Part shown: one piece after another, positions 1-12,544 of the stretch
Layout: every line of letters starts with the position of its first letter
Numbering within the stretch: the stretch's first letter is position 1
IMG/VR virus record: IMGVR_UViG_2571042372_000009
Direction: 5' to 3' (one strand)
Source of the DNA: a virus
Lineage: Duplodnaviria > Heunggongvirae > Uroviricota > Caudoviricetes
Length of the DNA stretch: 16,793 nt
Program-made: the position numbers and the translations under genes
The notes under the pieces: model-generated
Databases searched by the model: none
What the model was told of the DNA's origin: nothing
What the model saw: only the letters and a program-made list of their open reading frames with translations

Positions 1-1131
1 TCAAATGACCAGTTTTTTCCATTCCTTACCGCGTGCGTCGTTGTAAATATCGGTCATTTTTTGATTCGAATGGCCCAGCAAAATTTTGGTATCAACCCCC
101 TGCTCTCTGAACAATCGCTCTGATAAAGATCTCTGCTCATGGAAAGAGGGTGGGGTGCCATTAGCACGCCAGTTGTAATCCACAGAATCCCGGGCTTTTT
201 TAAATGCAACGGTTAATGTTGCTGGCTTAACCATCCCGCCGCGCTTAGCTGTCCCTTTCGCGTGATGGTGGTGCAATAGCCACGGACTAAGAACGCAATC
301 GCGGCAGGATGACACCACATCATCTAGGGTGAGATTTAATTTATCGCAACGCAGAGCCAGAGGGATGGCAATCCGGGTTCCTGTTTTTTGCTGTTCGACA
401 TGAAGATAACCATCCCGGATATCCGAAAATTGCATTTTGCAAATATCTGAAAGGCGCTGGCCTGTCATCAGTGCCAGCAGCATACCGCGCTGTAAAAAGT
501 AACCATCCTTTTCCGCTGCGTTATAAATCATCATCCACTCATCAAAAGTCAGTCGCTGTCTTGATATCCGCACCTGCGGTTTTTTTGCCGATTCTGCAGG
601 GTTAAAGCCTGGCGGGACATCGCCCGTTTGCTGAGCTTCCCGGAAAACATCGATCAGTACTTTCCTGAAAATTTGTCCCATTCTGTTATGTCCTCTGGCC
701 TTGTACTCTTCCAGTACTGATACCACATCTTTTACGGTTATGGCATCTAACGGTCTGGTGCCAAAACGTTCATCAAATACCCTGAGAGGGGCCGCTTTCT
801 GTTTCAGCGTGTTGAGTTTGATCTCGCCGTTTTCATATCTTTCCTGTTGAATTTTTCTGTAATTATTCAGAAAAATGGTAACGGTTGATGAACCGCCGGT
901 GTCACTAATAATTTTCTCCTGCAGACTGAGCATTTGTTCCATTTGCTGCCGGGCAAGACGGCTGTTCGCTTCTGCTGCAATAGTTTCTGCCAGTTTCTGG
1001 TCAATACTGCCGAGACCGTGATTTTTGCCTGTTATGGGATGCCTGTAACGCCAGTAAACTTTGTTATTTCTTTTGTCAAAATATGGAGATAATCCCGGAA
1101 CATCGGTTTTATATTTTCGCGGGCGCGCCAT
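1..1131 (-). CDS. int: Phage integrase, tyrosine recombinase (lambda Int family), 376 aa
   Basis: Full ORF with stop at 1-3. C-terminal ...LLGHSNQKMTDIYNDARGKEW... matches the conserved His/Tyr catalytic tail of lambda-family integrases. An excisionase-like ORF overlaps its start. Basis: sequence plus recalled family motif. Confidence 0.9.
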   Translation of the reverse strand: MARPRKYKTDVPGLSPYFDKRNNKVYWRYRHPITGKNHGLGSIDQKLAETIAAEANSRLARQQMEQMLSLQEKIISDTGGSSTVTIFLNNYRKIQQERYENGEIKLNTLKQKAAPLRVFDERFGTRPLDAITVKDVVSVLEEYKARGHNRMGQIFRKVLIDVFREAQQTGDVPPGFNPAESAKKPQVRISRQRLTFDEWMMIYNAAEKDGYFLQRGMLLALMTGQRLSDICKMQFSDIRDGYLHVEQQKTGTRIAIPLALRCDKLNLTLDDVVSSCRDCVLSPWLLHHHHAKGTAKRGGMVKPATLTVAFKKARDSVDYNWRANGTPPSFHEQRSLSERLFREQGVDTKILLGHSNQKMTDIYNDARGKEWKKLVI

Positions 1132-1421: not shown

Positions 1422-3893
1422 TTAAAAATCAGCCTGATTTGGGATCAGTTTTTGCCAGATAGCTGAAACGTATTTTGCCTGGTAACGGGCGTCATCAAGT
1501 GCATTATGGCGCTCACCTTCGAATGGAATAGCCGTTCTGGCATCGAAGTCTATGGCTTTCCCCAGCTCAACGATTGTGCGTACATCGCGATCGTTGTAGT
1601 AACGCCACGGGCAGGGGATCCCCTGCCGTTCGTATGAACGGCGCAAAATCGTGTTGTCGAAGTTGGCTCCATTTCCCCAAACCTGAACAAAAAATTCACC
1701 GGAGTTTTCGTCGATAAATTCCCGCAATTGTAACAGTGCATCATCTAACGGGATTTCATCGGTCATAATGGCAGATTGCGCTTCGCGTGATTGCTTAAGC
1801 CACCATTTAATGGTGTCCCGATCAATGACTCCGCCAGCAGTTTCCAGATCGATAGTCTTACTAAATTCCGGTCCCATATCTCCGGTTTGCGGATCGAAAA
1901 ATATTGCACCTATTGAGATGATCGGGGCATCAGGATTTTTTCCCATGGTTTCAAGGTCGATCATTAGATGGTCACACGTCCTGCTGGTGGATGTGATTTC
2001 GTGATGACCGTTCACCTTAATTGGGTGATCTGCCGTCTCGCCAGTTTCATTATCGCTATTGTGATGCTGATTGCCGCCAGTGTTCTCCTTGTGTGGATGT
2101 TCAGCGCCTTCCATTTCCTCCGGATCATCTTCCTGAACTTCAACCTGATACTCTTCATCGAATGTTTCTTGGTATGTTGCGTCGCCCATCACCGCGCCAC
2201 AATCAGGACAGTTGCCGCCGCCGGTCTGACCGCAGGCGGTGCAGGCTTTTTCCACTTCCTGGTGCGCCACTGGTTCAGGCTGTTTCGTTTCTGGCTCGTT
2301 TTGTAACGCATTTGGACTGTTTTGTTCCGCTTTTTGGTAGTTCCGTTCCGATTCATGCTGGTTCTGGCTCACAGAATCGCGGGTCTGGATCCCCTTAATC
2401 CATTTCGGATCATTCGGGTCACTAATCCCTTCAACAAATTCACCACGTGATGCAGCAAGCAACTTATCGGCGTCAGGCTGGCTGATATTGGCTGCCTGCA
2501 TAATTTTGTTTACTTCGTCAGCGGTAACTTTTATCGGCTCTGGTTGTTCTGAATCTTCAGCGGTATCTACATTTTGCGGTAAGCCCGTGTATGTGCCATT
2601 TTTTCGGGCAAAATATTCTTCTTTTGTGATTTCAGTGGCGCCAGCAGCCAGTGCCTTATCCAGACCAGAAAGTTTGTTTGCGCGACCGTATTTTTCTCCG
2701 TCCTTATCTGCGAAGAGGAAATAGAACGGCCCCTCACGCTCTACAGATGGTTCAGCTTCCGGCGCGGTTTCATTTTTTGGGATATCAGATACCTCAGTTT
2801 CCACTGCATCAGTTTGTGTTTCTGATGACTGGAGAACATCAACAGTGCCCAGGTCTGTTTCTTCATTCTCAAACACGCCCTTTGTCGTCAGGTATTCGCA
2901 GATATATTTGTTCAGTGCTACGGGATCTTTGTGAATGTCGATCGGACGCTCACGGACAAGGCCAAAAATAGTTTGGCGGTCGTAGCGAAGGGCATCAGGC
3001 TGTTTGCGCATTGATGCCGAGATACGCTTCCAGTCTTCGCGGTCGTTGTCGATAACTTCTTTTTTTGCCCAGCGATGGATGCTGCCGTCAATGTTTCCGG
3101 CATCCACATCACCAGGCCAGAGAGCGTAGGCCAGTTCGTCATCCAGTGTTTTCCATGTCTGCTTGTATTCGCGATGAATGGCAGCAATGACCGGGCTGAT
3201 TTTTCCTGTTGAATTTTCAGTGTACTGTTGATTGGCTCTGGCGCGGGCGAGATCAACAACAGACGTGTATTTTCCGGTTTCCTTGCGTTCACCTTCGCGA
3301 CGTTTTTTCCAGATGCGCATCTCTGCCTGAATTTCGGGCCATTTAGCACCAGGAATACATTTATGCTTAACCCACCCAATGGCGTGCAACTTAAGCTCCG
3401 GATACATGGCGTTAACTTCTGGCATTTTCATCAACGCTTCAACGATATGTCCGTCGAATGTTGCCATGTCTTCCTGCAACAATTCCTGTGCGCTAATAAC
3501 CATATCAACGGTGATGTTTTCACATGTGTCGAACTTAACCATGACAGCGTTCTGTACTTCAGGGGCCAGCTTGTCAAAAGTGACGTTCATCGGATCGGAT
3601 TCAGTCTCGACCGGAACAAAGGAAGCAGACGCCTCATCCCAGCGGTTTTCCTGCATATATTCAGCATCCCAGGAATCGAGGGCAGGGCGGGGTATACCGG
3701 GTTTATCCTCGCAAACAAGAAATTTATAAGCGCAGTCCTGAGCAGCCGGATAATGTTCCAGGAATTGCCAGTGAAATTTTGCGCGGGCGCGACGTTCATC
3801 ACCGGCTTCAATGGCAGTGGCTACAGCGACGGCACCTTCTTCCTTTATTGCCTGTTCGTCCGGAATGGCGGCGCAAATAAAGACTTTACTCAT
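1422..3893 (-). CDS. Large prophage exonuclease (DEDDh / DnaQ-like 3'-5' exonuclease C-terminal domain), 823 aa
   Basis: C-terminal region carries Exo I/II/III-like motifs (MIDLETMG; WGNGANFD; HNALDDARY). There is an internal acidic/Q-rich linker and a CxxC-x7-CxxC zinc-ribbon-like motif (CTACGQTGGGNCPDCG). SD-like GAGGT lies upstream of the ATG. It occupies the recombination/exo slot next to xis. Confidence 0.85.
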   Translation of the reverse strand: MSKVFICAAIPDEQAIKEEGAVAVATAIEAGDERRARAKFHWQFLEHYPAAQDCAYKFLVCEDKPGIPRPALDSWDAEYMQENRWDEASASFVPVETESDPMNVTFDKLAPEVQNAVMVKFDTCENITVDMVISAQELLQEDMATFDGHIVEALMKMPEVNAMYPELKLHAIGWVKHKCIPGAKWPEIQAEMRIWKKRREGERKETGKYTSVVDLARARANQQYTENSTGKISPVIAAIHREYKQTWKTLDDELAYALWPGDVDAGNIDGSIHRWAKKEVIDNDREDWKRISASMRKQPDALRYDRQTIFGLVRERPIDIHKDPVALNKYICEYLTTKGVFENEETDLGTVDVLQSSETQTDAVETEVSDIPKNETAPEAEPSVEREGPFYFLFADKDGEKYGRANKLSGLDKALAAGATEITKEEYFARKNGTYTGLPQNVDTAEDSEQPEPIKVTADEVNKIMQAANISQPDADKLLAASRGEFVEGISDPNDPKWIKGIQTRDSVSQNQHESERNYQKAEQNSPNALQNEPETKQPEPVAHQEVEKACTACGQTGGGNCPDCGAVMGDATYQETFDEEYQVEVQEDDPEEMEGAEHPHKENTGGNQHHNSDNETGETADHPIKVNGHHEITSTSRTCDHLMIDLETMGKNPDAPIISIGAIFFDPQTGDMGPEFSKTIDLETAGGVIDRDTIKWWLKQSREAQSAIMTDEIPLDDALLQLREFIDENSGEFFVQVWGNGANFDNTILRRSYERQGIPCPWRYYNDRDVRTIVELGKAIDFDARTAIPFEGERHNALDDARYQAKYVSAIWQKLIPNQADF

Positions 3894-3993
3894 TTTGTTT
3901 TACCTCATTACAGATTTAAGGGTGAACAAATCCCTGCCGGTGATGCTGCCAACTTACTGATTTAGTGTATGATGGTGTTTTTGAGGTGCTCCA

Positions 3994-4269
3994 GTGGCTT
4001 CTGTTTCTATCAGCTGTCCCTCCTGTTCAGCTACTGACGGGGTGGTGCGTAACGGCAAAAGCACCGCCGGACATCAGCGCTATCTCTGCTCTCACTGCCG
4101 TAAAACATGGCAACTGCAGTTCACTTACACCGCTTCTCAACCCGGTACGTACCAGAAAATCATTGATATGGCCATGAATGGCGTTGGATGCCGGGCAACT
4201 GCCCGCATTATGGGCGTTGGCCTCAACACGATTTTACGTCACTTAAAAAACTCAGGCCGCAGTCGGTAA
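3994..4269 (+). CDS. insA: IS1 InsA (transposition inhibitor / N-terminal part of InsAB' transposase), 91 aa
   Basis: [23 protein letters not shown]... zinc-finger N-terminus characteristic of IS1 InsA; lies inside the IS1 boundaries. Confidence 0.9.
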
Positions 4270-4691
4270 CCTCGCGCATACAGCCGGGCAGTGACGTCAT
4301 CGTCTGCGCGGAAATGGACGAACAGTGGGGCTATGTCGGGGCTAAATCGCGCCAGCGCTGGCTGTTTTACGCGTATGACAGTCTCCGGAAGACGGTTGTT
4401 GCGCACGTATTCGGTGAACGCACTATGGCGACGCTGGGGCGTCTTATGAGCCTGCTGTCACCCTTTGACGTGGTGATATGGATGACGGATGGCTGGCCGC
4501 TGTATGAATCCCGCCTGAAGGGAAAGCTGCACGTAATCAGCAAGCGATATACGCAGCGAATTGAGCGGCATAACCTGAATCTGAGGCAGCACCTGGCACG
4601 GCTGGGACGGAAGTCGCTGTCGTTCTCAAAATCGGTGGAGCTGCATGACAAAGTCATCGGGCATTATCTGAACATAAAACACTATCAATAA
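4188..4691 (+). CDS. insB: IS1 InsB (expressed as InsAB' transposase by -1 frameshift), 167 aa
   Basis: Overlaps the insA 3' end in the -1 frame downstream of the A-run slippery site; length and position as in IS1. Confidence 0.85.
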
Positions 4692-4706
4692 GTTGGAGTC
4701 ATTACC

Positions 4707-5159
4707 GAGAAAGATGATGTCTACATAGCCAATTGTATAGAAAAAGGTAAGACTGAATTTAAAGTAAGCAAAGATATTGCTGCGTTGCCTTTCAAGGGTG
4801 AACCCATCGAGAAAATTAGGGGAGAGCTAATCAGGTCAATCAAGGAACACTTGATCAGTGCAAGCTGGCATAGCACTAAAAAGGTAATCGACCGCTATGA
4901 AGCTACATTCGATATAAAAGTACAAAAAGACTGTCCGATAGAAGCTATTGAATTGGCAACCCTCAATCGAAATCACTTAGTGCATCGTGGTGGAAAGGAT
5001 AAAGAAGGGAACCTCGTAGTGATTACAGACCAGGATCTTGAAACGCTGATTGAAAATGCATCGAACCTGGCAATTATGCTCTACAACAGTTTAAATGTAG
5101 CAACGAATAAAACCACCATTTTGCAACCAGATGACAAACCGTTCATTCATGAATTTTAA
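4707..5159 (+). pseudogene. 5'-truncated ORF interrupted by IS1; product carries a HEPN-like R-x4-H motif (RNHLVH)
   Basis: The reading frame is open from the IS1 right end to TAA at 5157-5159 with no in-frame ATG/GTG. The first possible start is TTG at 4785 with no SD. Motif ...IEAIELATLNRNHLVHRGG... (R codon at 4968-4970, H codon at 4983-4985). Visibly AT-rich relative to flanking phage genes. Confidence 0.5.
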
Positions 5160-5174
5160 TAGCGCAGGTCATAC

Positions 5175-6176
5175 ATGGATATTCGCACACGAAAGACAAA
5201 ATTTTTAGAGTCGTTAGATTCAACTGAAGTGATACGCAAAGCAGTAAGTCTCGCTATAGATTGCATTATTGATAATCATAATAGTAATGAAGATACCCCC
5301 TTAGTTATTACCAGCTATGATGATCTCTGTAGAATCCAGGTGCTAAATTATGTACAGGAGTTTTGCGAAGCTGCATTCCCTGATATGGATGAATATTACT
5401 TTAGTCCTAACATACTTCGCATCAACGGCAAGACTAGTGAAGAAGCTTGTATTAACTTAATTAAACTCTTAAGAAGTACAAAAGGCATGCTATTCTGGTC
5501 CGATGCCCCATCGTGGTTCGCTAGCCTCCCCGACGGATTATTCCATGTTGTTAACATTGATCAAAAAATCGTTACTCGCGGCCTTAATAAGAAAAACTCT
5601 AAGCCGACAATAATCAATAAAGATTACAGTGTAGATACACTACTATCAGAGCTATTTTTGAATGGCGCACACATGGAGCAACCCAACGTACACAACGTTT
5701 CTGAGGGAAACATGAAGTTCTATGATGAATGCCATGCTGGATTAATCAGACCAATACCCGCTCCAATAGGCGCGTCATACGATGAAGAGATCACAATTAA
5801 TTCTCCAGATTGGCAAAAGCTCGCGTGTGTAGCTTTACGCCGCTATCAGTCGAAGGAATGTCATGACGGAATGCAATGGGATACAACCGATCATGGTTGG
5901 ACTGATGTAATCGCGTATCCATTCGTCGAAGAAATACAATCAATGGATAATAGTGGTTATCGACAATGTTTAGTTGGGCTGGTCACAATAAACAATTCAA
6001 ATGCAAATTCTCCGTACCTATCTACCGTTTGGATACATCCATTTTATCGCAGGAGAGGGTTATTAAGTAAGTTATGGCCAAAATTACAAGAGTTATATGG
6101 AAGTAACTTCGAAATTGAGCGACCTAATGAAAATATGAAAGCATTTCTGAAAAGTGCGAAACACGCAGATTACTAA
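5175..6176 (+). CDS. Hypothetical protein, 333 aa, C-terminal GNAT-like acetyltransferase-fold motif
   Basis: ATG at 5175 lies 15 nt after the upstream stop, with AGGT upstream. AT-rich codon usage. C-terminal ...VWIHPFYRRRGLLSKLW... resembles GNAT motif A (h-x-P-x-Y-R-x-x-G-h-x-x-x-L), and NENMKAFLKSAKH resembles motif B. The N-terminal about 170 aa is unassigned. Confidence 0.7.
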   Translation: MDIRTRKTKFLESLDSTEVIRKAVSLAIDCIIDNHNSNEDTPLVITSYDDLCRIQVLNYVQEFCEAAFPDMDEYYFSPNILRINGKTSEEACINLIKLLRSTKGMLFWSDAPSWFASLPDGLFHVVNIDQKIVTRGLNKKNSKPTIINKDYSVDTLLSELFLNGAHMEQPNVHNVSEGNMKFYDECHAGLIRPIPAPIGASYDEEITINSPDWQKLACVALRRYQSKECHDGMQWDTTDHGWTDVIAYPFVEEIQSMDNSGYRQCLVGLVTINNSNANSPYLSTVWIHPFYRRRGLLSKLWPKLQELYGSNFEIERPNENMKAFLKSAKHADY

Positions 6177-6492
6177 TTTATGAATCAGTCTGTGGAGTTA
6201 GGGTTGGTGTCAACAAGTAGGGTAAGAGCCTCAACGTGATGCTATGCCGACCTGCTCCCTGAGAATTCACACAGAAGGCTGCTAGCAATGTCTGCAGATC
6301 GCTCAAAGCGGACTAGAAGGTTAGCTTGCGTCGGACTTGGCGTATTTAAAGAAGTGCTGGTGGTGACTGGTTGTTGTGTTCCATTTCTACAGAACAAAAT
6401 CACAGAAACTATACCCAATAGTTATATTGAATCAATGATGAGACAGCCTCATATTTATCAGAACTGGTGTACGTCCAATACAGGAGGTTGTC

Positions 6493-6582
6493 GTGCTGGT
6501 TCTCAAATGTGCGCTAGCTATTGCGGCTGTAATGGCAATTTATTGTCTTGCTGTTGTTCTTATGGATCGCCTTTCTGATTGA
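6493..6582 (+). CDS. Candidate small hydrophobic peptide, 29 aa (GTG start)
   Basis: Consensus SD AGGAGG at 6483-6488, four nt before GTG. Product VLVLKCALAIAAVMAIYCLAVVLMDRLSD is one predicted transmembrane helix. A possible TTGAAT-17-CATATT promoter lies upstream. Not in the ORF track because it is under 60 aa. Confidence 0.3.
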   Translation: MLVLKCALAIAAVMAIYCLAVVLMDRLSD

Positions 6583-6636
6583 TTTTATATTGGCGAGGTG
6601 ACGGGAGTTAAGTAGAATTGCTGCGGGTGCTTGAGG

Positions 6637-6672
6637 CTATCTGCCTCAGGCATGAACACCAAAGGCAGATAG
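6637..6672 (+). promoter_or_regulatory. Perfect 10-bp inverted repeat (CTATCTGCCT ... AGGCAGATAG) in the hok/mok leader
   Basis: Arms at 6637-6646 and 6663-6672 with a 16-nt spacer. Candidate hok mRNA fold-back or antisense-target element, or a protein operator. Confidence 0.4.
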
Positions 6673-6793
6673 AGAAAAGCCCCAGTTAATATTACGCGTC
6701 CTGCAAGACGCTTAACATTAATCTGAGGCTCAATCTATGAACGGCAAATCTAGGTTAGCCTCTTACGTGCCGAAAGGCAAGGAGAAGCAGGCT

Positions 6794-6949
6794 ATGAAGC
6801 AGCAAAAGGCGATGTTAATCGCCCTGATCGTCATCTGTTTAACCGTCATAGTGACGGCACTGGTAACGAGGAAAGACCTCTGCGAGGTACGAATCCGAAC
6901 CGGCCAGACGGAGGTCGCTGTCTTCACAGTTTACGAACCTGAGGAGTAA
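6794..6949 (+). CDS. hokD: Hok/Gef family type I toxin (HokD/RelF-like), 51 aa, nested in the mok frame that starts at 6737
   Basis: MKQQKAMLIALIVICLTVIVTALVTRKDLCEVRIRTGQTEVAVFTVYEPEE matches the Hok/Gef family as recalled. The overlapping upstream in-frame extension (70-aa ORF from 6737) is mok-like. A stable 3' hairpin follows. Confidence 0.85.
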   Translation: MKQQKAMLIALIVICLTVIVTALVTRKDLCEVRIRTGQTEVAVFTVYEPEE

Positions 6950-7019
6950 GAGACCCGGCGAGGGAGAAATCCCTCGCCACCTCTGATGTGTCAGGCATCC
7001 TCAACGCACCCGCACGTAA

Positions 7020-7044
7020 CCCGCTTCGGCGGGTTTTGTTTTTT
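7020..7044 (+). terminator. Intrinsic terminator downstream of hok
   Basis: CCCGC-ttcg-GCGGG hairpin followed by TTTTGTTTTTT. Confidence 0.7.
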
Positions 7045-7116
7045 CCTGGCATTCTGGTTTACAATTCGCACGCCAGCCTGAACAACTGGCACCTGCTGCG
7101 CCAGCAGAGACAACCG

Positions 7117-7395
7117 ATGGCGCACGATACCAAATTACACAATTCTGATGATTCTGCCGTCTTTGCCAGCAGGCACGGGCGGCGTTCCCGCACTTTCAAA
7201 TCTGACTGGTTCCAGCATCCCCCATGCACTGAAGAACAGGCCGAGTGGCTAATTCAGTGCTACCGCAGACACGGATACGAGATTAAGAAAGCCCTCAGCC
7301 TCGATTATCGTCACTGGATAATCTCCGTCAGGCTTCCTTACTCCGAACGATCACCGCGTCCGTCCCGCACATTCCAGCAACGCATCTGGAGGTAA
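7117..7395 (+). CDS. Hypothetical protein, about 92 aa; positional analogue of rem in Qin-type prophages
   Basis: First ATG downstream of the hok terminator in the 6988-7395 frame. Its stop TAA at 7393-7395 lies just before the GTG start of the next gene. No motif recognised. Confidence 0.4.
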   Translation: MAHDTKLHNSDDSAVFASRHGRRSRTFKSDWFQHPPCTEEQAEWLIQCYRRHGYEIKKALSLDYRHWIISVRLPYSERSPRPSRTFQQRIWR

Positions 7396-7396
7396 C

Positions 7397-8443
7397 GTGC
7401 GAGTATTACTTCGACCTGTTCTGGTACCGGAACTCGGGCTGGTGATCGTTAAGCCGGGCCGTGAATCCATGCCGGTATTCCACAATACCCGGGTACTGGT
7501 GGAGCCGGAACCGAAAAGCATGCGTAATCTGCCGTCCGGGGTTGTTCCTGCCGTTCGCCAGCCGCTAGTGGAAGACAAAACATTGCTGCCGTTTTTCAGT
7601 AACGCACGGGTGATTCGTGCTGCTGGTGGTGCTGGTGCATTGTCTGACTGGCTGTTGCGCCATATTAAATCCTGCCAGTGGCCACACGGCGATTATCATC
7701 ACAGCGAAACCGTCATTCACCGTTATGGTACCGGCGCAATGGTGTTGTGCTGGCACTGCGACAACCAGCTGCGTGACCAGACATCCGAATCACTCGAGCA
7801 ACTTGCTCATCAAAACCTGTCAGCATGGATGATTGACGTCATACTCCATGCAATGAATGGCTCGCAGGAACGGGAATTATCGCTGGCTGAATTATCCTGG
7901 TGGGCGGTCCGCAATCAGGTGGCGGACGCGCTACCGGAAGCGGTATTACGTCGTTCGCTGGGGTTGCGTGCGGAAAAAATCCGCTCAATGTACCGTGAAA
8001 GCGACATCGTACCGGGAGAGCAGACCGCCACCAGCATACTGAAGCAGCGCACAAAAAATCTTGCGCCGCTGCCTCACGCCCACCAGCAAAACCCGCCACA
8101 GGAAGAGACGGTGGTCAGCATTGCCGTTGATCCTGAGTCTCCGGAATCTTTCATGAAACGACCTAAACGTCGCCGCTGGGTTAACGAGAAATACACACGC
8201 TGGGTGAAGACACAGCCGTGTGCGTGTTGTGGTAAGCCAGCCGACGATCCCCATCACCTGATTGGTCATGGTCAGGGCGGAATGGGGACAAAATCTCACG
8301 ATATTTTCACGCTACCGCTGTGTCGGGAGCATCACAACGAGCTTCATGCGGATCCTCTGGCGTTCGAAGAAAAGCATGGTTCTCAGGTTGATTTAATTTT
8401 TCGTTTTCTTGATCACGCCTTTGCAACTGGCGTGCTTGGGTAA
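7397..8443 (+). CDS. DUF968-like prophage protein (YdfU-like), 348 aa
   Basis: GTG start coupled to the upstream stop, with GGAGG upstream. Cys/His-rich C-terminus (CACCGKPADDPHHLIGHG...CREHHNELH). Lies immediately upstream of rusA-Q, as recalled for DUF968 genes in lambdoid prophages. Confidence 0.7.
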   Translation: MRVLLRPVLVPELGLVIVKPGRESMPVFHNTRVLVEPEPKSMRNLPSGVVPAVRQPLVEDKTLLPFFSNARVIRAAGGAGALSDWLLRHIKSCQWPHGDYHHSETVIHRYGTGAMVLCWHCDNQLRDQTSESLEQLAHQNLSAWMIDVILHAMNGSQERELSLAELSWWAVRNQVADALPEAVLRRSLGLRAEKIRSMYRESDIVPGEQTATSILKQRTKNLAPLPHAHQQNPPQEETVVSIAVDPESPESFMKRPKRRRWVNEKYTRWVKTQPCACCGKPADDPHHLIGHGQGGMGTKSHDIFTLPLCREHHNELHADPLAFEEKHGSQVDLIFRFLDHAFATGVLG

Positions 8444-8455
8444 AAGAGGTGACTG

Positions 8456-8830
8456 ATGCTCATAGATTTGGTTTTACCTTACCCGCCGACGGTGAACACT
8501 TACTGGCGACGCCGTGGCAGCACATATTTTATCTCGGAGGAGGGAAAGCGTTATCGCCGGGCTGTGGCGCTTATTGTTCGCCAGCAGCGGCTGAAATTAA
8601 GCCTGTCCGGAAGGCTGGCGATAAAGGTGATTGCAGAGCCACCGGATAAGCGTCGTCGCGACCTGGACAATATCCTGAAAGCACCGCTGGATGCGCTGAC
8701 GCATGCGGGAGTGTTAATGGACGATGAGCAGTTTGATGAAATCAATATCGTTCGTGGTCAGCCAGTATCTGGTGGACGTATGGGGGTGAAGATTTACCCC
8801 ATAATGCATGAAGAGCAGGTCAAAAAATGA
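8456..8830 (+). CDS. rusA: Holliday junction resolvase RusA, 124 aa
   Basis: SD AAGAGGTGA upstream of the ATG. Conserved PDKRRRDLDN motif as in the RusA family. Stop overlaps the next start (ATGA). Confidence 0.9.
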   Translation: MLIDLVLPYPPTVNTYWRRRGSTYFISEEGKRYRRAVALIVRQQRLKLSLSGRLAIKVIAEPPDKRRRDLDNILKAPLDALTHAGVLMDDEQFDEINIVRGQPVSGGRMGVKIYPIMHEEQVKK

Positions 8831-9648
8831 AACTGGAAGATTTACCGAAATACTACTCCCCAAAATCCCCTGGCCTGACCGATGCATCGGCCTCAACGTC
8901 AAAAGATGCGCTGAGTATCACTGATGTGATGGCCGCGCAGGGCATGACACAGAATCGGGCTGAGATGGGGTTTTCTGCGTTCCTGGGGAAAATGGGCATC
9001 AGTATGAATGACAGGGCGCGGGCAACAGAATTACTGGCAGATTATGCACTCAGTCGGTGCGATCGTGTGGCGGCGTTGAGAAAACTTCCGGCAGAAATAA
9101 AACCGGTAGTGATGCGCATTATGGCTTCGTATGCGTTTGAAGATTATGCCCGTAGCGCGGCGAGCAAAAAACAGTGCCCTTGCTGTCACGGAAAAAAATT
9201 TATTGAAAGCGAGGTTTTTACAAACAAGATCCAGTATCCGGATGGTAAGCCACCAGTGTGGGCAAAGTGCACAAAAGGCGTGTATCCGTCTTACTGGGAA
9301 GAATGGAAAAAAGTCAGGGAGGTGGTAAAAGTTGCCTGTCCGGAGTGTGGCGGAAAGGGTGAGGTTTCCACCGCCTGTAAGGATTGCCGTGGGCGTGGTG
9401 TCGCCATTCATCGTGAAGAGTCGGTAAAACGTGGTATGCCTGTTATCAGAGATTGCCAGCGTTGTGGTGGTCGTGGCTGTGAAAGGCTGCCATCAACGGA
9501 GGCATTTAATGCCATATGCAAAGTGACGAGTGCTATCACGCTTGATACGTGGAAAAAATCAGTGAAACGCTTTTACGATACGTTGGTGGTTCGGTTTGAC
9601 ATTGAAGAGGCATGGGCGGAGCGGCAGTTAAAGAGGGTAACGCGATAG
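8827..9648 (+). CDS. Late-gene antitermination protein Q (phage 82/Qin QuuQ-like), 273 aa
   Basis: N-terminal LPKYYSPKSP and multiple CxxC zinc-binding motifs (CPCCHGKK, CPECGGKGEVSTACKDCRGRG). Followed directly by a lambda-like pR'-tR' pair. Confidence 0.8.
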   Translation: MKLEDLPKYYSPKSPGLTDASASTSKDALSITDVMAAQGMTQNRAEMGFSAFLGKMGISMNDRARATELLADYALSRCDRVAALRKLPAEIKPVVMRIMASYAFEDYARSAASKKQCPCCHGKKFIESEVFTNKIQYPDGKPPVWAKCTKGVYPSYWEEWKKVREVVKVACPECGGKGEVSTACKDCRGRGVAIHREESVKRGMPVIRDCQRCGGRGCERLPSTEAFNAICKVTSAITLDTWKKSVKRFYDTLVVRFDIEEAWAERQLKRVTR

Positions 9649-9653
9649 TGTTG

Positions 9654-9681
9654 TTGATTTTTCCCGAATCTGTGGTAAATT
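9654..9681 (+). promoter_or_regulatory. Late promoter pR'-like (TTGATT - 16 nt - TAAATT) with qut-like initial transcribed region
   Basis: The -10 and downstream TGCTCTAACGATGGG closely resemble recalled lambda pR' (TAAATT TGACTCAACGATGGG). Immediately downstream of Q. Confidence 0.65.
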
Positions 9682-9728
9682 TGCTCTAACGATGGGCGTT
9701 TTATGCCTGACGTTAGAAGATTTTTTAC

Positions 9729-9754
9729 ACCCCGCCGCCTGGCGGGTTTTTTAT
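9729..9754 (+). terminator. tR'-like intrinsic terminator
   Basis: CCCGCC-gcct-GGCGGG hairpin followed by TTTTTTAT, about 65 nt downstream of the predicted pR' start. Confidence 0.75.
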
Positions 9755-9872
9755 GACTGAAATCGCGTCAGTACAGTAAACGCGCTGGTGGCGGTGAATA
9801 CCTGTCTTTCAGCTTGCTGGCTTTTTCGACAAGAGTTATTGGTGTGTCACGTTAACCGGAAAAGGAAAAGAC

Positions 9873-10070
9873 ATGCTAAAACAGCAGGATATGACAGAAA
9901 CCGCCAGAGTGGTGTTTAATGAATTAAGCGTTACCGACCCGGCGACAGTCGGGGAGATAGCGCAGAATACTTACCTTTCACGCGAACGCTGCCAGTTAAT
10001 ACTGACTCAGCTGGTTATGGCGGGTCTGGCAGACTATCAGTTCGGTTGTTACAGACGCCTTCCGCAGTGA
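9873..10070 (+). CDS. Small hypothetical protein with winged-helix/HTH-like segment, 65 aa
   Basis: SD AGGA six nt upstream of the ATG. ...TVGEIAQNTYLSRERCQLILTQLVMAGL... looks like a recognition-helix region. The stop is embedded in a terminator hairpin. Confidence 0.5.
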   Translation: MLKQQDMTETARVVFNELSVTDPATVGEIAQNTYLSRERCQLILTQLVMAGLADYQFGCYRRLPQ

Positions 10071-10082
10071 AGGCTTTTTTAT
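10057..10082 (+). terminator. Intrinsic terminator
   Basis: GCCTTC-cgcagt-GAAGGC hairpin followed by TTTTTTA. Confidence 0.7.
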
Positions 10083-10220
10083 TTGTGGTAAATGGGCGGC
10101 TGGTGGGTGTTAGGGGCACCCACCAGCCATCTGCTCATGCGTCCGGATCACAAGCAAACCTCAGGCCCACTGCTTTGCGCAAAAGCAGAATGAGCCTATC
10201 AGAGACAGGCTTAATGATCC

Positions 10221-11270
10221 ATGCTTAATACTGTAAAAATATCCAGTTGTGAGTTAATCAACGCCGACTGCCTGGAATTTATCCGGTCGTTACCCGAAAA
10301 TTCTGTTGACCTGATAGTCACGGACCCGCCGTACTTTAAAGTGAAGCCTGAGGGCTGGGATAACCAGTGGAAGGGCGACGATGATTACCTGAAGTGGCTG
10401 GACCAGTGTCTGGCGCAGTTCTGGCGGGTGCTGAAACCTGCCGGAAGTCTTTACCTGTTCTGTGGTCATCGCCTGGCATCTGATATCGAAATCATGATGC
10501 GTGAACGCTTCAGTGTGCTGAACCATATTATCTGGGCGAAGCCGTCCGGACGCTGGAACGGATGCAACAAGGAAAGGCTGCGGGCGTATTTCCCCGCCAC
10601 AGAGCGCATTCTGTTCGCGGAACATTATCAGGGGCCGTATCGTCCGAAAGATGCCGGGTATGCGGCGAAGGGCAGTGCACTGAAACAGCATGTGATGGCC
10701 CCGCTGATTTCTTACTTTCGTGATGCGCGCGCGGCCCTGGGGATAACGGCAAAACAGATTGCAGATGCCACAGGAAAGAAAAACATGGTGTCGCACTGGT
10801 TCAGTGCCAGTCAGTGGCAGCTACCGAATGAAAGCGATTATCTGAAATTACAGGCGCTGTTTGCCCGGGTGGCAGAAGAGAAGCATCGGCGTGGTGAACT
10901 GGAAAAGCTCCACCACCAGCTGGTGGATACGTATACCTCACTGAACCGGCAGTATGCGGAGCTGCTGAGTGAATATAAACATCTGCGGCGGTATTTTGGC
11001 GTGACGGTGCAGGTGCCGTATACCGATGTGTGGACGCATAAACCGGTGCAGTTCTATCCCGGGAAACATCCGTGCGAAAAACCGGCAGAAATGCTGCAGC
11101 AGATAATCAGCGCAAGTAGCCGTCCTGGTGATCTGGTTGCGGATTTTTTCATGGGGTCGGGTTCAACGGTAAAAGCGGCGATGGCACTGGGGCGTCGTGC
11201 GATTGGTGTTGAGCTGGAGACCGGACGTTTTGAGCAGACAGTCAGGGAAGTTCAGGATTTAATCGTTTGA
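10221..11270 (+). CDS. Orphan DNA amino-methyltransferase, beta class (N6-adenine or N4-cytosine; DPPY motif), 349 aa
   Basis: Motif IV DPPY near the N-terminus (LIVTDPPYF) and motif I FxGxG near the C-terminus (DLVADFFMGSGSTVKAA). No restriction endonuclease partner in the window. No clear SD. Confidence 0.9.
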   Translation: MLNTVKISSCELINADCLEFIRSLPENSVDLIVTDPPYFKVKPEGWDNQWKGDDDYLKWLDQCLAQFWRVLKPAGSLYLFCGHRLASDIEIMMRERFSVLNHIIWAKPSGRWNGCNKERLRAYFPATERILFAEHYQGPYRPKDAGYAAKGSALKQHVMAPLISYFRDARAALGITAKQIADATGKKNMVSHWFSASQWQLPNESDYLKLQALFARVAEEKHRRGELEKLHHQLVDTYTSLNRQYAELLSEYKHLRRYFGVTVQVPYTDVWTHKPVQFYPGKHPCEKPAEMLQQIISASSRPGDLVADFFMGSGSTVKAAMALGRRAIGVELETGRFEQTVREVQDLIV

Positions 11271-11319
11271 AACGGATGAGATTGCAGAATTAATTACGCA
11301 CCATTATTATTCTGCTCCC

Positions 11320-11395
11320 GGCCCTTTAGCTCAGTGGTGAGAGCGAGCGACTCATAATCGCCAGGTCGCTGGTTCAAATCCAGCAAGGGCCACCA
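11320..11395 (+). tRNA. tRNA with CAU anticodon (Ile2/lysidine type or Met), 76 nt
   Basis: Manual fold: acceptor GGCCCTT/AAGGGCC, D-arm GCTC/GAGC, anticodon loop CTCATAA, T-loop TTCAAAT, 3' CCA encoded. Resembles ileX/ileZ-type genes as recalled. Confidence 0.85.
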
Positions 11396-11402
11396 TCACA
11401 TA

Positions 11403-11479
11403 CCGCCATTAGCTCATCAGGAAAGAGCGCCAGCCTTCGAAGCTGGTTGCGCGGAGTTCGGGTCCCCGAAGGCGGTCCA
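11403..11479 (+). tRNA. tRNA-Arg (UCG anticodon), atypical, 77 nt
   Basis: Manual fold: anticodon stem CCAGC/GCTGG with loop CTTCGAA. One acceptor-stem mismatch (A6/A67), one T-stem mismatch, and T-loop TTCGGGT with G at the usually conserved A58 position. CCA encoded. Confidence 0.6.
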
Positions 11480-11492
11480 TTATCTGTATCCT

Positions 11493-11569
11493 GCGTTGTT
11501 AGCTCAGCCGGACAGAGCAATTGCCTTCTAAGCAATCGGTCACTGGTTCGAATCCAGTACAACGCGCCA
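11493..11569 (+). tRNA. tRNA-Arg (UCU anticodon), 77 nt
   Basis: Manual fold: perfect acceptor stem GCGTTGT/ACAACGC, anticodon stem ATTGC/GCAAT with loop CTTCTAA, T-loop TTCGAAT, CCA encoded. Confidence 0.85.
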
Positions 11570-11584
11570 CACTTATTTTCCCTG

Positions 11585-11608
11585 GCTCGCTTTTGCGGGC
11601 TTTTTTTT
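11585..11608 (+). terminator. Intrinsic terminator after the tRNA cluster
   Basis: GCTCGC-tttt-GCGGGC hairpin (one G-U pair) followed by T8. Confidence 0.65.
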
Positions 11609-11614
11609 AAATGT

Positions 11615-11830
11615 CTCACAATTCAGGCGGTTGACTGTTGTCTGGTTTGCGGGGAGTTTGTTAAAAGAAACTGGCATGGTGAATCCCCCTGTGCGGAGGG
11701 GCAATCAGCGAGTAGGTATATGGGATAATCGCGGATTCAGGTGCTGGTACTGAATTCACCGGGAGGCACCCGGCACCATGCAATGGCACATAGCGCCACT
11801 CTCCAGCCCCTCTCCGGAGGGGCTTTTCTG
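11615..11830 (+). ncRNA. Candidate structured noncoding RNA module, copy A
   Basis: Begins just after a terminator with CTCACAATTCAG...TTGACT. Contains three hairpins (CCCCCT-gtgcgg-AGGGG; CCGGG-aggca-CCCGG; GCCCCTC-tccg-GAGGGGC followed by TTTTCT). The same architecture recurs in copy B while the ORFs are not conserved. Confidence 0.4.
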
Positions 11831-12082
11831 TGCCGGATACATCACAGTTTCTGGAACCTTAGGTACTACAGTATCAGTCAGGGTGCTATATTTTCAGATG
11901 TGATGAAAGCCTGTCAGCAGGCAGGGCGTATCGGAAATGACCCAGTAGAGAAAACGTTGACTCAGATACCGGTGCTGAGTTACCGGGAAACCGGCATCAC
12001 ATGACCGCTATCCTTCCAGGCCCATCCGCTCCGGTGGGCCTTTTTACTGCAGAAAACAGGTTCCCCGTTAAATGCTATGTTG

Positions 12083-12317
12083 CTCACAATTCAGTAAGTT
12101 GACAGTTGCCTGTCAGACTGGGCATTTGTTAAAAAAATTTCGCATGGTGAATCCCCCTGAGCGGAGGGGCGACTGGTGACGGTATAATCTCTGATTATCA
12201 AAACGAGAATGACGCGGGTTTAGTGGCACCGGGCTGAACTCACCGGGAGGCACCCGGCACCATGTGCATGATGATACAGATACGCGGCTTTAGCCCCTCT
12301 CCGGAGGGGTTTTCTTG
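12083..12317 (+). ncRNA. Candidate structured noncoding RNA module, copy B (divergent paralogue of copy A)
   Basis: CTCACAATTCAG...TTGACA start, the same three hairpins with conserved stems, and a terminal GCCCCTC-tccg-GAGGGG + TTTTCTT terminator. Preceded by another terminator (GGCCCA...TGGGCC + T5 at about 12019-12045). Confidence 0.4.
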
Positions 12318-12544
12318 TGGGCAAAAAAAGCCCGCGCTGGGAGACGCGGGCGGCAAGGAATAAACAATAAAACGTGAAGTAATATTTCAGCTGGCGAATA
12401 ATACCCCATAGTAATCACTCTGCGCAACTGCGCGGTCTTTTTCGAATTGCGGGCTGTCGTCTCTCTTCTGCCATTGTCCTGTAACTTCCGGACTTCAGCC
12501 CGCTCCTTATTTTACTCACAATATTATCCCGGCCGGGAGGATTC

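Follow-up and report, generated by a model that had tools for sequence, protein, structure and literature searches.

The window, by which we mean the whole stretch of 16,793 nucleotides that was analyzed, belongs to a lambdoid prophage that is inserted next to ompW in E. coli. It carries the following features:

1-1131, minus strand: integrase gene, with the excisionase next in order
1422-3893, minus strand: gene for an 823-aa exonuclease
3938-3939, no strand: left deletion junction, where the left end of IS1 directly follows the prophage sequence that lies downstream of the exonuclease gene (...AAATCCCTGCC)
3939-4706, plus strand: IS1A element of 768 bp, with insA at 3994-4269 and insB' at 4188-4691, annotated by PGAP as IS1-like element IS1A family transposase
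4707-5159, plus strand: pseudogene remnant, matching base for base codons 171-320 and the stop of a 320-codon NTD1-HEPN gene (WP_014639476.1)
4866-4871, plus strand: codons for W224-H225, residues invariant in the family
4968-4985, plus strand: predicted catalytic motif R-x4-H (R258 N H L V H263; CGA = R258, CAT = H263), followed by the invariant R264
5175-6176, plus strand: intact downstream gene of 333 aa (WP_000354966.1), with an N-terminal alpha/beta domain and a C-terminal GNAT fold
downstream of the 333-codon frame, in this order: hokD/sok, DUF968, rusA, Q antiterminator, DNA methyltransferase, three tRNAs, lysis genes
6625-6799: sok antitoxin RNA (Rfam match, 113 bits), adjoining and overlapping the hokD ORF region
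11320-11569: three prophage tRNA genes, Met (CAT), Arg-TCG and Arg-TCT
11645-11835 and 12113-12322: two copies of the sRNA family STnc100 (136 and 161 bits)

Several of these features deserve a brief comment in their own right. A hok/sok type I toxin-antitoxin locus lies directly downstream of the cassette formed by the HEPN and GNAT-like genes, and the STnc100 copies are located 3' of the tRNA cluster, before the lysis region. The first prophage tRNA is called Met (anticodon CAT) by ARAGORN, whereas the RefSeq annotation of the UTI89 equivalent gives tRNA-Ile.

The stretch between IS1 and the GNAT-like gene had been described, in a sequence-only reading, as a frame open from the right end of IS1 to a stop at 5157-5159, with no usable start codon or Shine-Dalgarno sequence, and the translation bears this out. 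Read from 4692 to 5159, it gives VGVIT, then EKDDVY...LATLNRNHLVHRGG...FIHEF and the stop; the fragment proper begins EKDDVYIANC, and its frame, entered directly behind the insB stop (4689-4691), stays open until the TAA at 5157-5159. As in-frame starts, only TTG and GTG codons (4785, 4851, 4953, 4980, and 5019) come into question, none with a convincing Shine-Dalgarno sequence; AGGA lies upstream of the TTG at 4851, and the earliest in-frame ATG, at 5076, is 27 codons from the stop. The insB stop codon is indeed in frame with the fragment, as had been pointed out and put down to coincidence, which has a one-in-three chance of producing such an arrangement. In four complete genomes, this 453-bp segment is listed by PGAP as a pseudogene "missing N-terminus".

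Two of the checks proposed in that reading, a homologue search with the fragment and a comparison with the same prophage lacking IS1, lead to full-length proteins and to an intact 320-codon gene. Megablast against complete E. coli genomes recovers the same DNA without IS1 in UTI89, S88, APEC O1, IHE3034, NU14, and many more strains. In UTI89, the frame runs upstream for another 170 codons to a GTG start, yielding the 320-aa protein WP_014639476.1, to which the fragment is identical over codons 171-320. A chance open reading frame, the alternative that had been allowed for, is refuted by this identity to an intact gene and by the existence of a family of thousands of homologues. The intact two-gene cassette is present in approximately 205 of the 5,426 complete E. 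coli genomes (matches to at least 80% of the cassette query). Some gene callers place the start 20 codons further upstream, at an ATG preceded by the Shine-Dalgarno sequence AAGGAGG (positions 5431-5490 of the UTI89 locus, L001; the resulting 340-aa form is denoted P0001). The homologues start at the GTG, and the 20-codon extension holds a perfect extended -10 element (TGGTATAAT, L001 5448-5456); the 320-aa form probably has the right start. A scan for consensus promoters upstream of the intact gene found no match, and the extended -10, which was seen by eye 35 nt before the GTG start and is not accompanied by a -35 element, is a candidate only.

What remains of this gene in the window includes W224-H225, the R-x4-H motif, and most of the HEPN domain, in a frame that is intact and free of secondary mutations. 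The cut, at residue 170/171, falls exactly where the first long helix of the modeled C-terminal helical domain ends (P0001 residues 160-190, that is, UTI89 residues 140-170), a helix that includes the invariant E159; with this helix gone, the four-helix bundle of the remnant could not form as modeled. Because the N-terminal domain, the first long helix, the promoter and upstream region, and a usable start codon are all missing, the segment 4707-5159 is very likely a non-functional, IS1-truncated remnant of an NTD1-HEPN gene, and it should not be expected to fold or to be expressed.

That the gene was cut by IS1 had been recognized from the sequence, and this part of the claim stands, the 3' portion (codons 171-320) being what survives; the event, however, was not a plain insertion but an IS1-associated deletion of 5.5 kb. 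On the left, window positions 3445-3938 correspond to positions 1-494 of the UTI89 locus with 100% identity and, on the right, positions 4707-12300 correspond to L001 6001-13594 with 99.99% identity, that is, one mismatch in 7,594 nt. Between them, IS1, with its inverted ends GGTGATGCTGCCAACTTA.../GGTAATGACTCCAACTTA..., replaces 5,506 bp of a UTI89-type lambdoid prophage (L001 495-6000). At the left junction, UTI89 reads on as ATTGCTGGC... toward ydfD. The 9-mers that flank IS1 differ (ATCCCTGCC vs GAGAAAGAT), so that a target-site duplication is absent. A simple IS1 insertion is ruled out by the 5,506 missing base pairs, the non-contiguous flanks, and the lack of a target-site duplication. 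By the UTI89 annotation, the deletion removed ydfD, dicB, ydfC/B/A, the gene for a LexA-family (cI-like) repressor, cro, and ydaT, together with a replication gene, a DUF977 gene, and, from the HEPN gene, its promoter region and codons 1-170.

Adjacent deletion is classical IS1 behavior, and the present case resembles it in that a complete IS1 joins parental sites 5.5 kb apart without an 8-9 bp target duplication; it differs in that no intermediate, in which IS1 occupied one junction while the 5.5 kb was retained, was found among the complete E. coli genomes. The combination of a complete IS1, non-contiguous flanks, and no target-site duplication points either to an IS1-associated adjacent deletion or to recombination between two IS1 copies, and the two routes are equally possible. 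Each of the exact junctions occurs in only four complete genomes, the same four in both cases. The single mismatch in 7.6 kb indicates that the event is recent, which accounts for the lack of decay in the remnant and says nothing for selection acting on it. After the event, int, xis, and exo are kept on one side of IS1, and Q with the lysis genes on the other. The outcome is a prophage immobilized in one step and devoid of its immunity region.

IS1 has struck elsewhere in this neighborhood as well. In strains 94EC, 33-6, 58-3, 23CRST007, and 23CRST012, IS1 lies within a few hundred base pairs of the exo/ydfD junction, and this part of the prophage is a repeated IS1 target. In E. coli SF-173, an independent IS1A splits the downstream gene for the 333-aa GNAT-like protein (L083 9046-9743).

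In E. coli, the HEPN gene lies between the replication genes and hokD, in a slot whose cargo varies. In approximately 785 genomes, the match to the cassette query is limited to its first ~90-98 bases and, given the unrelated cargo that follows, the slot can be considered a variable accessory-gene hotspot. Between DUF977 and hokD, AMA1167 carries genes for hypothetical proteins of 314 aa and 449 aa along with an integrase fragment (L084 4501-7500), and CREC-591 carries one for a hypothetical protein of 269 aa (L085 4501-6100).

The assignment of the intact protein to the HEPN superfamily is supported by transitive homology and by a predicted structure. Taken by itself, the E. coli protein matches the Pfam family PF18870 (HEPN_RES_NTD1) over aa 26-92 with 22.2 bits (E 1.9e-4), below the gathering threshold of 27.4 bits, and neither it nor the 150-aa fragment matches PF18735 (HEPN_RiboL-PSP; gathering threshold 28.4 bits), even at E<=1. 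Its full-length homologues do exceed these thresholds: PF18735 is scored at 36.1, 36.4, and 29.0 bits in P0101, P0083, and P0113, which cover 87-92% of the query with E-values of 1e-28 to 1e-53, and PF18870 at 29.6, 28.7, 28.7, and 27.7 bits in P0113, P0116, P0117, and P0118, respectively. Among the 51 aligned members, 34 match PF18870 and 25 match PF18735 at E<=1e-3 (best PF18735 E-value, 7e-11). A search of 5.8 billion proteins yielded 122 clusters ranging from 99% down to ~30% identity, nearly full-length, many of which come with precomputed labels for PF18870 and PF18735. When 1.84 billion representatives were searched exhaustively with a profile, 3,609 clusters at 50% identity were obtained with E<=1e-3, including 849 with E<=1e-30; the best 150 of these clusters all have E-values below 1e-70 and are mostly 270-320 aa long. 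Judging by these searches, the family is large and its architecture is constant. Only two distant matches were obtained in the collection of sequenced phages.

The layout that emerges for the intact protein consists of a putative N-terminal HEPN/RES-NTD1 domain (~aa 6-95), followed at the C-terminus by a four-helix HEPN domain of RiboL-PSP type (AbiD/AbiF-related). When 32 and 51 sequences, reaching down to 26% identity, are aligned, E159, W224-H225, R258, H263, and R264 prove invariant. The HEPN reading of the R-x4-H motif that had been spotted in the fragment is supported by homologues that pass the PF18870 and PF18735 thresholds and by the invariance of R258 and H263, R-x4-H being the only motif of this domain with strict conservation. 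The residue that follows R258 is N or H throughout the alignment, and in catalytic HEPN domains the arginine is typically followed by a polar N, D, or H (PMC3710099). The structure was modeled on P0001, the same protein at 99% identity with the 20-aa N-terminal extension from the upstream ATG. The AF2 model has a pLDDT of 87.5; its C-terminal domain is predicted to be an all-alpha, four-helix up-and-down bundle, as expected of a HEPN fold, with the R-x4-H motif at the C-terminal end of a helix spanning residues 268-283 (P0001 numbering). Foldseek returned nothing significant from the PDB, and a sequence-profile search of the PDB retrieved no HEPN chain at E<=10, the only hit being a chance match to ribosomal protein eL20 (E 0.018). 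On the strength of the conserved motif, the intact protein is likely a catalytic HEPN RNase.

PADLOC, NCBIfam, and PHROGs offered no informative name for either the HEPN or the GNAT-like protein, the PHROG of the former being one of unknown function; no PADLOC model, including those that would represent PD-T7-4 and ApeA, matched; and a literature search by protein accessions, locus tag, and PHROG identifier retrieved nothing, with no experimental work on the family found. The domain architecture itself is not without precedent. Anantharaman et al. (2013) reported fusions of NTD1 to HEPN, RES, and further domains, and the protein analyzed here agrees with that architecture in having ~100 aa of N-terminal domain and then, at the C-terminus, a HEPN domain in which R-x4-6-H is conserved. 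It differs in that, in the 2013 table, NTD1 is fused to the MAE_18760 HEPN (MAE_28990 group), whereas the present family matches RiboL-PSP, and in that the E. coli protein scores under the threshold of either Pfam model and carries no annotation beyond "hypothetical protein". With the architecture cataloged since 2013 and Pfam models available for both domains, this is not a new kind of protein; by sequence comparison, the NTD1-HEPN family is one that was previously predicted computationally, and the E. coli protein is an unrecognized member of it.

The natural comparison is with aRES, with which the protein analyzed here is predicted to share its N-terminal domain and from which it differs in the effector. 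aRES (Osterman et al.) is a stand-alone protein that combines PF18870 with a RES NADase, protects E. coli as a single gene, is found in defense islands, and is expected to arrest growth upon infection (bioRxiv 10.64898/2026.01.28.702374). The likeness lies in the PF18870 N-terminal domain and in the single gene that has no operon partner (bioRxiv 10.64898/2026.01.28.702374); the difference lies in the effector, a RES NADase in aRES and a predicted HEPN RNase here, and neither the E. coli protein nor any of the 51 homologues showed a RES domain. In both aRES and NTD1-HEPN proteins, NTD1 would be the presumed sensor. In homologue P0117, NTD1 is combined with a PIN nuclease.

Two other defense proteins provide instructive parallels. 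HepS, from the Salmonella prophage Gifsy-1, is inactive by default, is triggered by a tail-tip protein, and acts as an anticodon nuclease that causes abortive infection (PMC13043305). Like the protein considered here, it is a solo HEPN protein with an R-x4-H motif, encoded in the lambdoid accessory region downstream of the replication genes and lacking a conserved partner (PMC13043305); the HepS family (STM14_3211) is described as stand-alone and shorter than 250 aa, and the present protein, with 320 aa and an extra domain, probably lies outside it. RAZR/PD-T7-4 joins an N-terminal zinc-finger sensor to a DUF4145 HEPN domain and is activated by phage ring proteins (PMC13017515); it is non-toxic until triggered by the phage protein, and its HEPN dimers form a composite active site (PMC13017515). 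The arrangement of an N-terminal recognition domain and a C-terminal HEPN RNase, predicted in our case, is similar, and ApeA and Tha are further single-protein HEPN defenses. The family analyzed here differs from RAZR in the absence of a Cys4 zinc ribbon, NTD1 having one partly conserved Cys, and in belonging to another HEPN subfamily.

Deletion and truncation, homology, HEPN fold, invariance of the motif, and the stand-alone behavior in genomes are established by the comparisons above; RNase activity, activation by infection, and a role in defense are what we infer for the intact protein, largely by analogy with these systems. It would be a single polypeptide, a predicted metal-independent HEPN endoribonuclease encoded by an accessory gene of lambdoid prophages, that is synthesized constitutively in the lysogen from its own promoter and held inactive. 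A phage-derived cue would be sensed via the N-terminal domain, whereupon the paired HEPN domains would reposition so as to bring their two R-x4-H motifs together in a composite active site; cleavage of cellular RNA, either tRNA or mRNA, would then arrest the infected cell and abort the infection. In the window, IS1A and the 5,506-bp deletion took away the promoter, the start codon, NTD1, and the first long helix, leaving the gene dead. The explanation as a whole, namely, a dead remnant of a stand-alone HEPN endoribonuclease gene the intact form of which has an infection-triggered, abortive-infection role, has, in our estimate, a probability of roughly 80%. Considered separately and argued by analogy, the anti-phage, abortive-infection role of the intact protein is plausible, with the odds leaning slightly in its favor. 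The more specific proposition that the intact 320-aa protein (UTI89_RS07075 type) is a widespread single-gene anti-phage system, in which NTD1 is joined to a HEPN RNase as it is joined to an NADase in aRES, is tentative and, in our judgment, falls a little short of an even chance.

This reading has to be weighed against others, one of which concerns the neighbor of the remnant. The downstream gene had been called GNAT-like from the sequence, and rightly so: the 333-aa protein possesses a GNAT fold (~aa 205-333, window ~5787-6173) and an acetyl-CoA-binding motif. Together with the HEPN gene, it could constitute one two-component unit, be it toxin-antitoxin-like, with the RNase regulated or neutralized by the acetyltransferase, or a defense pair, with the whole module inactivated by IS1. 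The two genes are on the same strand, 15 bp apart, and all 205 E. coli genomes that match at least 80% of the cassette query contain the two; the pair is kept in Serratia grimesii (98% and 95% identity) and, in a different mobile element, in Aeromonas caviae (86% and 79%); and independent IS1 events strike each of the genes. The occurrence of the pair in E. coli, Serratia, and Aeromonas in different elements implies that it moves as a cassette. In the wider family, however, a relative of the GNAT-like gene is missing from 76 of 80 species-level HEPN loci (tblastn, E<=1e-3), among them loci of Aeromonas taiwanensis and Yersinia, the HEPN proteins of which are as close as 75-76% identity, and no alternative conserved neighbor takes its place in the 80 HEPN loci across many phyla; the partner was present in four of the first 82 loci (three from E. 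coli, counting UTI89 and the IS1-cut strain, and one from S. grimesii) and was found further in A. caviae. Six of the seven diverged GNAT-like homologues examined have no HEPN gene alongside, these six (39-62% identity) being from Shewanella, Marinomonas, Neptunicella, Idiomarina, Motilimonas, and a Serratia ICE. The GNAT-like gene also survives intact without the HEPN gene in the window and in four sister genomes and, accordingly, is no addictive toxin dependent on the HEPN protein. The HEPN loci that lack the partner and the partner homologues that lack a HEPN gene, taken together, argue against an obligate two-component system, and a single unit is unlikely; inactivation by IS1 applies to the HEPN gene and not to the GNAT-like frame, which is intact. 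By these comparisons, the two form a mobile cassette of separable genes, which may be functionally coupled within the E. coli/Serratia/Aeromonas clade, where the 15-bp pairing is constant.

It is also conceivable that the remnant is still expressed, by read-out from IS1 or from an internal TTG, and that the truncated product is, for instance, dominant-negative or a constitutively active nuclease. The frame is unbroken by secondary mutations, AGGA precedes the TTG at 4851, and R-x4-H is kept; but the first long helix with E159 is missing, so that the bundle could not form as modeled, the deletion of the native upstream region leaves the remnant without a promoter of its own, promoter-like matches around the remnant occur at chance level only in a scan of the region, and the single mismatch in 7.6 kb reflects recency, not selection. 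We regard continued expression with such effects as extremely unlikely. The remaining alternative bears on the intact form: a HEPN-fold protein might serve the prophage itself, in RNA processing, regulation, or another superinfection-independent role, or might be a non-catalytic binding domain, as in nucleotidyltransferase-attached HEPN. No defense phenotype is reported in the literature found, nuclease-inactive HEPN domains do exist (PMC3710099), and many neighbors of distant homologues are ordinary metabolic genes. Yet, non-catalytic HEPN domains typically lose the R-x4-6-H motif (PMC3710099), whereas here the R and H are invariant and the polar residue is conserved down to 26% identity; NTD1 is common to RES and PIN effector proteins, a pattern typical of conflict systems; and the family is patchily distributed across phyla, often beside integrases and known defense genes. 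A non-defense function therefore seems quite unlikely. The immediate neighbors across the HEPN loci include integrases, transposases, pAgo with SIR2, GajA, HerA, RmrA, CapP, a type II restriction enzyme, and AbiJ-NTD3; with housekeeping or metabolic genes being many of the neighbors of distant homologues, the defense-island signal is modest.

Two neighborhoods can be mentioned separately. In A. caviae, the HEPN/GNAT-like pair (L089 7212-8293) is carried by an element with a relaxase, and its immediate neighbors are SIR2 and cREC-REC genes, a defense island-like setting. In Marinomonas epiphytica (L088 4038-4679), the GNAT-like homologue (51% identity) adjoins a divergently oriented gene with a weak Pfam match to Abi_2 (AbiD/AbiF-type HEPN), which may be a second, independent GNAT-like/HEPN pairing or else a coincidence.

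Returning to the preferred reading, that of a dead remnant of a stand-alone HEPN endoribonuclease gene, the remnant itself is of little importance, being a recent, IS1-generated pseudogene already flagged by annotation pipelines. The IS1 event is an example of one-step prophage immobilization, in which the repressor, cro, the replication genes, and dicB are gone. Of use as well is the intact gene, a "hypothetical protein" in ~4% of complete E. coli genomes for which a reading as an NTD1-HEPN protein is now available. The gene resides in a prophage accessory-gene region where solo HEPN defenses, such as HepS, occur, and it is a concrete candidate for phage challenge, for which the four IS1 strains are natural knock-outs. 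If the intact protein does function as a single-gene anti-phage system, HEPN/RES-NTD1 would amount to a portable domain for infection sensing or regulation, used with several effectors (HEPN, RES, and PIN), and the GNAT-like neighbor in enterobacteria might add a second, cooperating layer.
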